Part shown: one piece after another, positions 25,013 through 53,727 of the stretch
How positions within the stretch are numbered: position 1 is the stretch's first letter
How the letters are laid out: each line of letters starts with the position of its first letter
NCBI GenBank assembly: GCA_049322355.1
Contig: JBMORG010000010.1
Span: forward strand, 435,186-499,185
Length of the DNA: 64,000 bases
Source: Thermodesulfobacteriota bacterium
Lineage (GTDB): Bacteria > Desulfobacterota > Desulfobaccia > Desulfobaccales > 0-14-0-80-60-11
Direction of reading: 5' to 3'
Position numbers and translations under genes: made by a program
Notes under the pieces: model-generated
What the model saw: the letters and a program-made list of their open reading frames with translations, nothing else
Told to the model about the DNA's origin: nothing
The model's database searches: none

Positions 25013-26938
25013 TTATTGCTGGGCCACCTTCTGCTGAATGCGAACAATGACAAATTCCGCGGGCTTCAACGGAGCAAAGCCCACTATGACGATTACCATG
25101 CCCCGGTCGATGTCGTCCTGGGTCATGGTGTCGCCCTTTCCGCACCGCACAAAGTAGGCTTCCGAGGCCGTCTTGCCTTGAAAGGCGCCAGCCCGGAAAA
25201 GCCCGTCCATGAAGGCCCCGATATTGGTGCGCAGGGAAGCCCACAAGTTGTAATCATTAGGCTCGAAGACCGCCCATTGAATGCCGTTGTAGATGCTCTG
25301 TTCGATCATGATGGCAGTGCGGCGCACCGGCACATAGCGCCACTCCGGTTCGGCCTTGGTAGCCAGGGTCCGGGTCCCCCAGATGACCGGGCCATAGCCG
25401 GGCATACGGCGCAGACAGTTGATGCCCAGGGGATTGAGCTGATCCTGTTCGCCATCTTCAATCTGGTATTGCAGGCTGGTCACTCCCAGGAGAGAGGTTT
25501 CCACCCCGGCGGGAGCTTTCCAAACCCCGCGTTTGGCGTCGATCTTGGCCCACATGCCGGCTGCCGCGGCGCCGGGGGCCACCAGCAAGGTGGTGGGGAC
25601 GCCGGGATTGAACTCGGCTTGGTAAAAAGGGTTGGCCACTTTGATCCAGGGATAGTACACCACCGAGTAAGTCTTGGGTTTAAAGCCCAGATCGGTCACC
25701 GCCTTCTCGGTTTTCAATTCGGTGTTTGCTGGCGGGTCGATAATAACCATGCGGCTTTTCATCTTTTCCGCATGGGCCACGGCGGCATCTATGATGGCCT
25801 GCTCCGCAGTGGAAGACCAGGTCTGCCCCGGCAGGCAGATGATATTAACATCCCGGTATTTTTCCAAAATGGCGAAAATCGCCTGGTAGGCGGCTAGGTT
25901 GGGCTGGTTGCCATTACCCCCACCAGTCAGGGGAACCAAACCATCTACTGTGGCCAGCAACTCGTTCAGCGACTGCTGGCCGGTACGCTCCAAGCCGTCG
26001 TGAGCCACGCCCAGCAGCAAGTGCGCCGCAGCATCATCGGCGCCGCCAGGGCCGGTTACCACCACGGCGGAAGTGGGAAGCCGGGACCCGGAGGTCAGTT
26101 CCAGGCGCTGGTTGACCACGGCACAGGTAAAGCCGTGAACTGCCGGATTTTCTGCAGCCGTGACCGCCCCCCGGACCTGGGTCTGAATGAGACTGGCCAC
26201 GTCGGCCAACTCGCTGTCGTTGTCAAAGGCATCCGCAGCAAAAGAGACGCTCCGGGCGGCGCCATCCACCGTGACGGTCATGGAGTCGCCGTTCAGGACC
26301 GTAAGGTCAGCCAGTCCCCCCAGATTCTGACTGATGCTGACCCCCAGCAGATACTGGCTCAGGTCTTGAACCTCCACCACAATATACTTGGAGATGCCGT
26401 TGACCTTGCTCTCGATGTAGTCCGGAGCTTGGTCGTCAGCGACCGTCAGATCGGTGAACTTCTCCAGGGATTGAAACTTTCCTTCTCCATCCGGGACGCC
26501 CACCTCCAGAACGAAATAATTAGGGAAATCTGGTTTGGGATTGAACCGCACCCTGAGGGCGTTTCCCCACTCCCCTGGATTGACCGCCAGAAATTTAATT
26601 ATCTGGGCGGCGTTCCCCGGATTCACCACAAAGCCTTCCGCTGTGTCTGCGGTGCCCTCGGCAATGGCGCGGACAATATAAGCCGCGGTGCCGCCATTGA
26701 GGAAGAAGTTGTAGGCCGCAAATCCCATGGGATCCCCGGCTTCGTCCTTGCCGAGGTCCTGGATTCCGCCAAACTGATCGTCATAGGCATCCCATTTAAA
26801 AATCAGGGTCGGCTCCGCCACGGGGCCCTTGGTGGTATAGCCGATAAAAGCGGCTGTAGATGTCCCCACCCCTTCAATAGGTTTGACCCCGCTGGGAATT
26901 TCCTCAACATAAACACCCGGATGCAGATAACTGGGCAT
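25013..26938 (-). CDS. Contractile tail sheath protein
   Basis: 641 aa. N-terminus MPSYLHPGVYVEEIPSGVKPIEGVGTSTAAFIG is typical of sheath proteins. AGGAGAAGG precedes the ATG. First gene of the operon. Confidence 0.9.
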   Translation of the reverse strand: MPSYLHPGVYVEEIPSGVKPIEGVGTSTAAFIGYTTKGPVAEPTLIFKWDAYDDQFGGIQDLGKDEAGDPMGFAAYNFFLNGGTAAYIVRAIAEGTADTAEGFVVNPGNAAQIIKFLAVNPGEWGNALRVRFNPKPDFPNYFVLEVGVPDGEGKFQSLEKFTDLTVADDQAPDYIESKVNGISKYIVVEVQDLSQYLLGVSISQNLGGLADLTVLNGDSMTVTVDGAARSVSFAADAFDNDSELADVASLIQTQVRGAVTAAENPAVHGFTCAVVNQRLELTSGSRLPTSAVVVTGPGGADDAAAHLLLGVAHDGLERTGQQSLNELLATVDGLVPLTGGGNGNQPNLAAYQAIFAILEKYRDVNIICLPGQTWSSTAEQAIIDAAVAHAEKMKSRMVIIDPPANTELKTEKAVTDLGFKPKTYSVVYYPWIKVANPFYQAEFNPGVPTTLLVAPGAAAAGMWAKIDAKRGVWKAPAGVETSLLGVTSLQYQIEDGEQDQLNPLGINCLRRMPGYGPVIWGTRTLATKAEPEWRYVPVRRTAIMIEQSIYNGIQWAVFEPNDYNLWASLRTNIGAFMDGLFRAGAFQGKTASEAYFVRCGKGDTMTQDDIDRGMVIVIVGFAPLKPAEFVIVRIQQKVAQQ

Positions 26939-27231
26939 AACCTTCTCCTTACCTAAGTAAAGTTTGATTCCAGGTTAATACCAATGCTTTGAACAACTTG
27001 GATCAAAGCCCGCAAGTCCTCACCGCTTATCAAAAAAGTTACAGTTGATTATAGATAGTTATCTTTAAGGACCCCCCAAGGCCTCGTTCGCTGTGTTTAA
27101 TACCCCAGATTGATTACCTTATTTTCAGGCCCTGCCTTTTTGAAATACTTAAAAATTTATCGCCTCACCGCGGCAGATTCATTGACACCCCTTGCAGTCC
27201 CTTTTTTGAAAGTAATTTATTAAATGGTAAA

Positions 27232-27260
27232 ATAATAGGGACATCATTTTATAAAGTCAA
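27232..27260 (-). promoter_or_regulatory. Candidate sigma70-type promoter of the eCIS operon
   Basis: On the minus strand: TTGACT (27260-27255), a 17-nt spacer, then TATTAT (27237-27232). It lies inside a visibly AT-rich ~330-nt stretch and would give a ~285-nt leader before the sheath ATG. Confidence 0.35.
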
Positions 27261-27720
27261 TATGAATAAAATATTTATAAAAAAATTATCTCTTCCAAAA
27301 TTTTGCCTTACCTTTTCATCAATGATATGAGCACGGTTGGGTGCCACTTCGGGCAGGATAAAGCAATGCATATTGATGACTAAAAATCGAGTCCAATCTC
27401 TACGAAGTGCCTGACAATCTAAATTTTATTGATGTGGGGGTGGATGAGATCCAGAGTCTGGAATGGGAGGCGGTGCATTTTACCAAGAAGCTGGTGCGGC
27501 TTAGGAGGCGAAAGCACTAACGCAGTGCGGGTAATTGTGGCTACCCCCCCTAAACCGGAACCTCGGGGAAAAGGGTTTTGGGGCTGATGCCTCGACATGC
27601 CGCGCTGGAGATTTCATATCTTTGACTGTCAGGGTCAAATTTGATAATCCTTTGTCGGTGGCTTTAACTGAAGTTACGGTTCGGAATCAGCCTTTGTGGC
27701 TTGATAAGGAGATTATTCAG

Positions 27721-52681: not shown

Positions 52682-52798
52682 CATGATCCATACCCTGAGC
52701 GTGCGGACTGGCAGCCGCATCGAAATGGTGGATATAACCCGCAAGGTTCAGGAACTGGTCCAGGCCAGCGGCGTCGATGAAGGCTGTTGCCACCTCTT
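52682..52798 (+). repeat. 117-bp direct repeat, copy A (duplicated 5' end of yjbQ)
   Basis: Matches 53611-53727 at 114 of 117 positions (mismatches at 52734, 52785 and 52786). Confidence 0.95.
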
Positions 52799-52802
52799 TT
52801 AG
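52683..52802 (+). pseudogene. Truncated yjbQ 5' fragment (39 codons then TAG)
   Basis: Encodes MIHTLSVRTGSRIEMVDITRKVQELVQASGVDEGCCHLF* versus the intact MIHTLSVRTG...DEGLCHLFVAHTT at 53612. The sequence turns AT-rich immediately after 52798. Confidence 0.85.
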
Positions 52803-53610
52803 TAACACACAAACTATTTTTGACTGTGTTATCCCGTTTAAGTTTAATGGGTTAGTCTCTGCAAGGATGTGTGCCACATCTTAAAACAATAGCCCCTAAC
52901 TAAATTATCTCCATGCCCAGATAGATTATAGCTCGGCCCGTGAGGCAGGTGATATGAATAAAAAAGGCTGTGGTTGTTTAGGAGTACTTGGGATAATAGT
53001 TGTTTTGATAATTTTTGGTTCATTATCTGAAAAAAATAAAACTACGCCAAAATCGAATATTGAAAACATTAAAAATAAACATCCTGATTTATTTATTTAT
53101 GAAGACCCCAATAGCGATTTTAATAAAATGAGCCCTTCCGAACACCTATCCCAAGCCAAAAAAGATTTAGCAGATAAATCTAGTAACTGGCCCTATGGGA
53201 GATTATCATTAGCAAAAAAACATTTAGAAACAATTAAGAAAGAAAATGATGAATATAAAGAAGCTCAACTATTATTAAAAGAAATTGAAAAAAAAAGAAA
53301 ACTCGATATGGAATTTGCTAAAAAGTTGGGTATTAAATTGGAAATCGAAAATCGCAAAAATTATGTCAAACAATTAGAATTAAATTATTTGGAAGCCGGC
53401 TTGGATATTGAGGTTTCTATCTCTGGAAAGAATCAAACAACTATCACTTTAAAAAATATTTTACTCTCACGTCCAGTTATTTATAAGTTAACTAAAGACG
53501 GAGAACTTCTTTCAAAATTTAAGAGCTTGGGCTTTAAAAAAGCTGTTTTTTCGGATGGATATAATTCGTACACCTATGATTTAACAAAATAACCGCAATG
53601 AAGGTAAAAA
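52799..53610 (+). other. Visibly low-GC 812-bp insertion carrying one gene
   Basis: Composition changes abruptly at both repeat boundaries, with long A/T runs throughout. By eye it is roughly one-third G+C, against clearly more than half in the flanks (not computed). Confidence 0.8.
52954..53592 (+). CDS. Lys-rich membrane-anchored/lipoprotein-like protein of foreign composition, unknown function
   Basis: 212 aa. N-terminus MNKKGCGCLGVLGIIVVLIIFGS (TM or lipobox-like), then a Lys/Glu/Asn-rich coiled-coil-like region. AT-rich codons are unlike any neighbouring gene. Confidence 0.7.
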   Translation: MNKKGCGCLGVLGIIVVLIIFGSLSEKNKTTPKSNIENIKNKHPDLFIYEDPNSDFNKMSPSEHLSQAKKDLADKSSNWPYGRLSLAKKHLETIKKENDEYKEAQLLLKEIEKKRKLDMEFAKKLGIKLEIENRKNYVKQLELNYLEAGLDIEVSISGKNQTTITLKNILLSRPVIYKLTKDGELLSKFKSLGFKKAVFSDGYNSYTYDLTK

Positions 53611-53727
53611 CATGATCCATACCCTGAGCGTGCGGACTGGCAGCCGCATCGAAATGGTGGACATAACCCGCAAGGTTCAGGAACTGGTCCAGGCCAGCGG
53701 CGTCGATGAAGGCCTTTGCCACCTCTT
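53611..53727 (+). repeat. 117-bp direct repeat, copy B (5' end of intact yjbQ)
   Basis: See copy A. The same duplication shows in the antisense track ORFs 52605..52877 and 53534..54136, which share AFIDAAGLDQFLNLAGY[IV]HHFDAAASPHAQGMDH. Confidence 0.95.

Follow-up and report, generated by a model that had tools for sequence, protein, structure and literature searches.

A single-gene insertion at the start of yjbQ

Within the 64,000-nucleotide (nt) stretch of a Thermodesulfobacteriota genome analyzed here (contig JBMORG010000010.1, positions 435,186 to 499,185; hereafter the window), the 5′ end of yjbQ is present twice, and its two copies enclose a low-GC unit with one gene, to which we refer as the cargo. 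We consider it probable, while leaving ample room for other readings, that this unit stems from a temperate phage or integrative element and entered by a recombinase-independent, illegitimate insertion in which the first 117 nt of yjbQ were duplicated.

The two repeat copies, termed A (left) and B (right), measure 117 nt each, stand at a spacing of 929 nt and agree at 114 of 117 positions (97.4%), as the original prediction had described; they form the sole high-identity repeat of the window (Table 1). The duplication begins 1 nt 5′ of the yjbQ start codon, and copy B is, again as predicted, the start of an intact yjbQ. Copy A is left with an open reading frame (ORF) of 39 amino acids (aa) that reproduces YjbQ residues 1-34 and 36-39 and terminates at a TAG formed across the left junction. 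Its description as a dead fragment sharing the first 34 aa of YjbQ stands, but not its supposed divergence beyond that point, as residue 35 alone differs. The three mismatches comprise a synonymous exchange in the codon for Asp17 (GAT/GAC; T at 52733 versus C at 53662) and an adjacent pair, TG at 52785-86 in copy A versus CT at 53714-15 in copy B, which makes codon 35 Cys in the former and Leu in the latter. The pair lies 12-13 nt before the end of the repeat and hence the left junction, and the copies are otherwise identical in blocks of 51, 51 and 12 nt.

The 812 bp between the copies (52799-53610), found as previously noted to be AT-rich and to hold a single 212-aa ORF, have a GC content of 31%, versus 57% for the window. 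The cargo ORF itself has 28.5% GC and, at third codon positions, 22.5% versus 67-76% in the neighboring genes, so that the composition and codon-usage statistics proposed alongside the original prediction mark the insert as clearly deviant. Mobility genes were detected neither in the insert (Pfam, PHROG) nor in its flanks, where ten large ORFs within ~10 kb were scanned, and no inverted repeats of at least 14 nt occur at the insert borders, which bears out the earlier statement that integrase, transposase and inverted repeats are absent. The surrounding 20 kb hold housekeeping genes (truB, pnp, an M16 peptidase gene, ilvBNC, psd and pssA), and the nearest tRNA genes are ~16 kb from the insert. 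With no border inverted repeats, no transposase and a duplication of 117 nt, the unit does not correspond to an insertion sequence (IS), a transposon or a miniature inverted-repeat transposable element; nor does it correspond to an integron cassette, as only 18 nt follow the cargo stop codon and contain no inverted repeat of the kind expected for attC.

Empty sites and the origin of the duplicated DNA

The insertion is the derived state. We compared the locus with six species representatives of Desulfobaccales or delta-proteobacterial affiliation (L005-L010), two metagenome contigs available as DNA (L011 and L012), whose YjbQ is 91-92% identical to that of the window, and two gene tables without DNA. 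In 10 of 10 relatives (eight with DNA, two gene tables) the order pyrR, 410-aa gene, yjbQ and 579-aa gene is uninterrupted; the check for empty sites suggested earlier thus finds the site empty in all ten examined, and supports the notion of a horizontally acquired, single-gene insertion that duplicates the 5′ end of yjbQ and leaves the gene intact. The gap between the upstream stop codon and yjbQ, which amounts to 2-5 nt in L005-L010, is 2 nt in the closest relatives, as at copy A. Furthermore, the 30 nt 5′ of copy A match the two closest relatives at 24 and 21 positions, versus 8 and 10 positions for the 30 nt 5′ of copy B, which places copy A in the ancestral position and identifies copy B as the one that continues into the ancestral gene body.

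The duplicated DNA, in turn, is the host's own. Over the 117 nt the closest relatives agree with the window at 95-98 positions (81-84%), versus 97.4% between copies A and B, so that both copies must derive from the host lineage, and a surrogate yjbQ 5′ end carried in by a phage from a different host is excluded by the same comparison. The mismatches had been taken to suggest either an old event or incoming DNA with its own diverged yjbQ 5′ end; the latter option is now narrowed, in that any donor copy would have come from the same species-level lineage. In 117 aligned YjbQ homologues, position 35 is occupied by V in 103, L in 9, A in 2 and otherwise by F, I or E, and by Cys in none, while the Leu35 of copy B is also found in its two nearest relatives. 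Given that distribution, the double change in copy A is better read as the result of decay in the dead copy, or of a mistake made during junction formation, than as a natural allele that arrived with the incoming DNA.

Native context of the cargo gene

The cargo's relatives sit in the lysogeny modules of integrative elements, a native context that the original prediction had proposed to search for. A protein search across 5.8 billion sequences returned only three close homologues besides the window's own, at 92, 84 and 63% identity. In the 84%-identical locus (L001), a tyrosine integrase gene (N-terminal part, phrog_1), three small ORFs and an HTH_17 excisionase gene are followed by the divergently oriented cargo, which lies ~230 nt from the excisionase gene and 1.2 kb from the integrase gene. 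In the 63%-identical locus (L002), the cargo is followed by a hairpin that by eye resembles a terminator, by small ORFs and by an HNH endonuclease gene. In both, the cargo is again an island of ~30% GC between flanks of ~54-62% GC. Blastn homology to the window extends from 14 nt before the ATG through 2 nt past the stop codon. Among more distant family members, one predicted-prophage contig from IMG/VR carries an anti-repressor gene, a CI-like repressor gene, the family member and an integrase gene (L015), and another a repressor-like gene, a 155-aa ORF and the family member (L014); others stand among small unannotated ORFs or as lone lower-GC units. Family members are often lower in GC than their flanks and recur beside repressor, integrase or excisionase genes. 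Between the window's cargo and that of L001 the ratio of nonsynonymous to synonymous substitution rates (dN/dS) is 0.21, with a dS of 0.37, which indicates that the protein is under purifying selection.

These homologues also bear on the integrity of the assembly. The window comes from a metagenome-assembled genome, and an assembler might have threaded a foreign low-GC fragment in at a repeat; we give such a chimera hardly any credence. No exact stretch shared by copies A and B exceeds 51 nt, so that larger k-mers separate them, and a chimera would not yield a precise, in-frame duplication of local sequence spanning a start codon. The cargo, moreover, has independent homologues under purifying selection, an independent contig shows a similar ORF layout, and the locus lies on a contig of 635 kb.

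That independent contig, of 962 nt and from JGI (Joint Genome Institute) sample 3300075153, carries the 92%-identical cargo (P0002) and is known by its ORF layout alone. A 40-aa ORF lies 5′ of the cargo, and another ORF starts 6 nt past the cargo stop codon and runs off the contig end; the 6-nt offset equals that of an ATG in the window's 18-nt linker. The contig's length approximates 929 + 33 nt, which would fit a loop or circle composed of repeat plus insert. In a separate observation, the distant family member at positions 2379-2921 of L004 (minus strand; 266 aa), with 38% GC in a contig of 52% GC, adjoins an ORF that by eye resembles the N terminus of an IS-type transposase.

Junctions and a proposed route of insertion

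A gap-tolerant local alignment of window positions 52780-52940 with L001 positions 1540-1812 scores 45.5, against 24.0 ± 4.5 (maximum 39.5) in 300 shuffles, from which it follows that the 155-nt noncoding 5′ part of the insert is homologous to the L001 excisionase-cargo intergenic region, a TTGAC(T/A) box included. The alignment begins at CCACCT (52790-95), within the last 9 nt of copy A, and on this evidence the donor piece would have run from the translation-start region of the excisionase gene to just past the cargo stop codon. The left joint may thus coincide with a 7-nt microhomology, CCACCTC, for which the rough chance expectation is ~1% and which we regard as suggestive, and the right joint probably falls at a microhomology of at least CATG.

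We propose that a nascent strand left yjbQ at about nt 112-117, copied 812 nt of co-resident phage DNA and then returned to the yjbQ start, with both joints forming at these short microhomologies. The inserted unit, entering at nt 117 of yjbQ, would consist of a regulatory region, the cargo gene, whose product is predicted to be anchored in the membrane, and the 18 nt that follow it; the right-hand copy would thereby rebuild a complete yjbQ with a ribosome-binding site supplied by the insert, and the left copy would be reduced to a dead 39-codon stub. Microhomology-mediated template switching appears to be the most likely route, because it would account for the duplication, both joints and the cluster of mutations by the left joint in a single step. 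Alternatively, the same product could have been reached through illegitimate formation of a circle, followed by a RecA crossover.

A possible scenario, though one we rather doubt, is entry of the Campbell type or facilitated by homology, in which a circle or linear fragment carrying the cargo together with a conspecific yjbQ 5′ segment recombined by RecA through the 117 nt, the mismatches then being allelic. A single crossover with such a circle gives exactly the observed product, the 51-nt perfect blocks are long enough for RecA, judged by known minimal homology lengths, and the layout of the 962-nt contig is compatible with the order "end of repeat, insert, start of repeat" in a loop or circle of ~929 nt. 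Two illegitimate joints would nevertheless still be needed to build the circle, which merely moves the problem; the absence of Cys35 from all 117 homologues speaks against an inter-strain origin of the difference at that residue, and the peptides guessed for the neighbors of the P0002 cargo have no exact match in the sequence collection.

Site-specific integration, raised by the original prediction as an explanation for so long a target duplication, is not supported. In its most explicit form the repeats would be the left and right attachment sites (attL and attR) remaining from an element resembling L001; having brought a replacement yjbQ 5′ end, this element would later have been deleted except for the cargo, a reading that strikes us as quite improbable. 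The L001 cargo does lie close to excisionase and tyrosine integrase genes, and duplication of gene ends is a known property of integrative elements (PMC2853133). A search for a core of the attP/attB kind, in which L001 and L002 were each compared with the reconstructed empty site, further yielded a match at 16 of 19 positions (CTGGGCCATGCCAGCGTCG versus CTGGTCCAGGCCAGCGGCG) that pairs L001 1673-1691, in the excisionase-cargo intergenic region, with yjbQ codons ~24-30 (about 52754-52772 and 53683-53701). Its score of 11.5, against 8.3 ± 1.0 (maximum 12) for shuffles, is borderline, and the match could be due to chance or be the trace of an attachment-site-like relationship. Against such a remnant, no integrase gene remains in the insert or the scanned flanking ORFs, and the left end of the insert aligns directly with the L001 intergenic region, with no attachment-site arm in between. 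As that alignment starts at the repeat boundary, the deletion endpoint would have to coincide exactly with the boundary of the core. L001 furthermore contains no 117-nt yjbQ-like segment, its whole contig matching only the cargo by blastn, and a phage-borne 5′ end is unlikely to be 97% identical to the host's when sister species differ by 16-19%.

It is important to note that several points weigh against illegitimate insertion from a lysogeny module as we propose it. L001 is a relative of the donor and not the donor itself: its cargo ORF is 88% identical to that of the window and its noncoding part much less so, for which reason the CCACCTC microhomology is suggestive and not proven. The 18-nt linker, CCGCAATGAAGGTAAAAA, which directly precedes the C-ATG where copy B starts, has no second occurrence in the window and no counterpart in the 13 loci searched, and the proposal does not account for it. 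Both junctions are read from assembled sequence and not from single-molecule reads. A consensus scan calls neither the TTGACT-17-TTTAAT arrangement described below nor any other plus-strand promoter 5′ of the cargo, and the cargo protein has no significant match in Pfam, PHROGs, PADLOC or NCBIfam, the only NCBIfam match being YtrI at 18.3 bits versus a cut-off of 125. Finally, the literature has established no mechanism for insertions with long target duplications.

Relation to known classes of insertion

The arrangement at yjbQ, which fits a single event that duplicated host DNA and cost the host none of its sequence, matches the class known as "insertion with long target duplication" (Nobusato et al. 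2000, Gene 259:99; Furuta, Abe & Kobayashi 2010, NAR, PMC2853133), of which it is an example and not the first. Furuta et al. describe inserts without mobility genes that are flanked by direct repeats of 30 to >400 bp, single at the empty site; such inserts are often of lower GC, and precedent repeats span start or stop codons, with the target gene staying intact (PMC2853133; PMC3457768). The class has been described mainly for restriction-modification genes, with "other DNAs" also mentioned (PMC3457768). Measured against this description, the 117-nt repeat exceeds the 30-bp minimum and is single at the collinear empty site in the eight loci with DNA and the two gene tables, and the unit, at 812 bp and one ORF, is far below the 20-kb limit, carries no mobility gene and is flanked by a repeat that is neither a tRNA gene nor an attachment site. 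The cargo is not a restriction-modification gene, which in Furuta 2010 is a criterion for screening and not a mechanistic requirement. Shared with the class are thus the short insert devoid of mobility genes, its lower GC, the repeat spanning a start codon, the survival of the target gene and the slight divergence of the copies; different are the cargo (a gene that stems from a phage lysogeny module and is predicted to encode a membrane protein), the uncultured Desulfobaccales-type host and a donor-like context suggestive of microhomology at a junction. No further case of the kind was found around family members (nine regions, eight other loci) or across the whole window.

Three other systems invite comparison. 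The phage moron, a concept said to go back to Hendrix and Juhala, likewise is a single low-GC accessory gene with deviant composition between genes that are adjacent in relatives, situated in phage-like contigs by integrase, excisionase or repressor genes; like a moron, the cargo may also be an independent transcription unit. It differs in that the unit here lies in a housekeeping operon of a bacterial chromosome, no terminator is called and the promoter is only weakly consensus-like, and flanking target duplications form no part of the definition of a moron. Among integrative elements, those restoring a gene end similarly carry direct repeats that duplicate this end and keep the gene functional. 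The present case differs from them by the lack of an integrase, by an insert of 812 bp and by a repeat that is, at 97% identity, host sequence rather than a version brought in by the element. Homology-facilitated illegitimate recombination, reportedly the subject of work by de Vries and Wackernagel in 2002, and template switching, reportedly conceptualized as microhomology-mediated break-induced replication (MMBIR) and fork stalling and template switching (FoSTeS), have in common with our proposal that short microhomologies serve to link the foreign DNA, no dedicated recombinase being involved. Another shared feature is the clustering of point changes by a joint, represented here by two of the three mismatches, which lie 12-13 nt from the left junction. 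A difference is that in the classical homology-facilitated process recipient DNA is usually deleted, and not duplicated.

A more speculative reading, to which we attach a very low probability, would make the 929-bp unit of cargo and one 117-nt yjbQ 5′ copy a mini-circle that is mobile without a recombinase. It would pop out by RecA between the repeats and re-enter conspecific chromosomes through a single crossover on the captured gene start, rebuilding the gene each time. On this view, the 962-nt contig, which comes from a different sample and encodes the 92%-identical cargo, would represent a circle or loop of this kind. If true, insertions with long target duplications would acquire a life cycle. 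Kobayashi's group has reportedly hypothesized one for restriction-modification units, where to our knowledge it has never been demonstrated.

Over the 25 years in which the class has been catalogued, restriction-modification genes have been almost its only cargo; the yjbQ locus indicates that the pattern occurs independently of cargo that cuts DNA, here in an uncultured anaerobe lineage. The non-restriction cargo, from a lysogeny module and a large unannotated family, the uncultured host and the donor-like sequence are new elements, the last of which hints at microhomology: because it can be aligned with a junction, it suggests joints at motifs resembling ribosome-binding sites, a testable lead to the mechanism.

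Organization and expression of the locus

Operon read-through should transcribe the cargo and then yjbQ, since a scan called no terminator in the insert region. The 5′ part of the insert additionally contains, as read by eye, the promoter-like boxes TTGACT (52820-25) and TTTAAT (52843-48), separated by 17 nt, and the insert is therefore predicted to be transcribed by read-through from the pyrR operon, from a weak promoter of its own, or both. The cargo has a strong ribosome-binding site (AGGTGAT before the ATG), Rfam detects no match in the insert, and its noncoding 5′ region is not unusually structured as RNA (z -0.8). The consequence for the host looks modest: yjbQ is intact, yet uncoupled from the upstream gene and now placed behind foreign DNA, while the 39-codon stub stays translationally coupled to that gene. 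RecA should be able to recombine the two 51-nt blocks of identity and thereby excise the insert, with exact restoration of the empty site, so the persistence of the insert points to a recent event or to selection.

Table 1. Features of the yjbQ locus (window coordinates, 5′ to 3′)
Feature	Position	Strand	Remarks
Upstream gene, 410 aa	51448-52680	+	No Pfam match; stop codon 2 nt before native yjbQ start; ancestral left flank; orthologues directly 5′ of yjbQ in L005-L012
Repeat copy A	52682-52798	+	yjbQ 5′ end in ancestral position; native GGAGG ribosome-binding site, coupled to upstream stop codon
Dead yjbQ′ fragment, 39 aa	52683-52802	+	Cys35; TAG made by the junction
CCACCTC at end of copy A	52790-52796	+	Candidate junction microhomology; equals complement of L001 excisionase ribosome-binding site
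Noncoding 5′ part of insert	52799-52953	+	40.6% GC; homologous, with insertions and deletions, to L001 excisionase-cargo intergenic region
Cargo gene, 212 aa	52954-53592	+	Predicted N-terminal membrane anchor, helical region, small C-terminal alpha/beta domain; family unannotated
Linker, 18 nt, CCGCAATGAAGGTAAAAA	53593-53610	+	GAAGG resembling a ribosome-binding site 7 nt before yjbQ ATG
Repeat copy B	53611-53727	+	5′ end of functional yjbQ; Leu35 codon as in closest relatives
Intact yjbQ, 132 aa	53612-54010	+	UPF0047, secondary thiamine-phosphate synthase family; PF01894, E 8e-47; YjbQ by NCBI name
Downstream gene, 579 aa	54011-55750	+	No Pfam match; starts immediately after yjbQ stop codon; ancestral right flank

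The proteins encoded on either side of yjbQ, of 410 and 579 aa, also have no NCBIfam match. The conserved trio they form with yjbQ is strictly syntenic and tightly spaced in every Desulfobaccales-type relative examined.

The cargo protein and its family

A profile search places the cargo in a family of 1,046 clusters at 50% identity (E ≤ 1e-3). Its members (among them P0125-P0273, L003, L004 and L013-L019) share a transmembrane anchor, a helical region with the signature EHL..AKK and a C-terminal domain with the signature SRP...GFKK..F.DGY. In a confident structure model of the cargo (built with 71 sequences; predicted local distance difference test score, pLDDT, 89), a transmembrane helix at residues 9-25 and helical hairpins come first, then a helix of 47 residues, and last a small domain of beta-beta-alpha-alpha-beta-beta order. 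The N-terminal segment previously described as lipobox-like is in this model a transmembrane anchor instead, with the Cys residues preceding the hydrophobic stretch. Some family members have N-terminal zinc ribbons before the membrane helix, which supports a topology with the N terminus inside and the C terminus outside.

The model has no structural neighbor in the PDB or BFVD, and the protein no match among nuclease, methylase or defense models. No cargo matches were found in cultured phages or plasmids, none in a viral scan with the close cargo alignment, and a metagenome scan returned only the two distant relatives L003 and L004. Position in lysogeny modules and the predicted membrane anchor are the clues to an envelope function, and we infer that the cargo may be a moron-like envelope protein that temperate elements express in lysogens, acting, for example, in superinfection exclusion. 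The locus draws attention to a large family (>1,000 clusters at 50% identity) without a model in Pfam, PHROGs, PADLOC or NCBIfam, which recurs in prophage lysogeny modules and is a candidate for envelope functions expressed by lysogens.

Other features of the window

The second-lowest-GC patch of the window, at 26904-27437 (534 nt, 36.9% GC), was considered as a second cassette and rejected: it is a long, AT-rich intergenic region between divergent genes (one ORF ending at 26938 on the minus strand, the other starting at 27535 on the plus strand) and has no flanking repeat. A direct repeat of 102 nt with 76% identity, at 3871-3972 and 6051-6152 and thus 2.2 kb apart, falls within two large ORFs of the minus strand (2682-4253 and 4688-6289), and the two genes are probably paralogues. 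The plus-strand segment 55814-55906, just 3′ of the 579-aa gene, scores as a skipping-rope RNA (Rfam RF02924), with 40.1 bits versus a gathering score of 36.7 and an E value of 6e-7.

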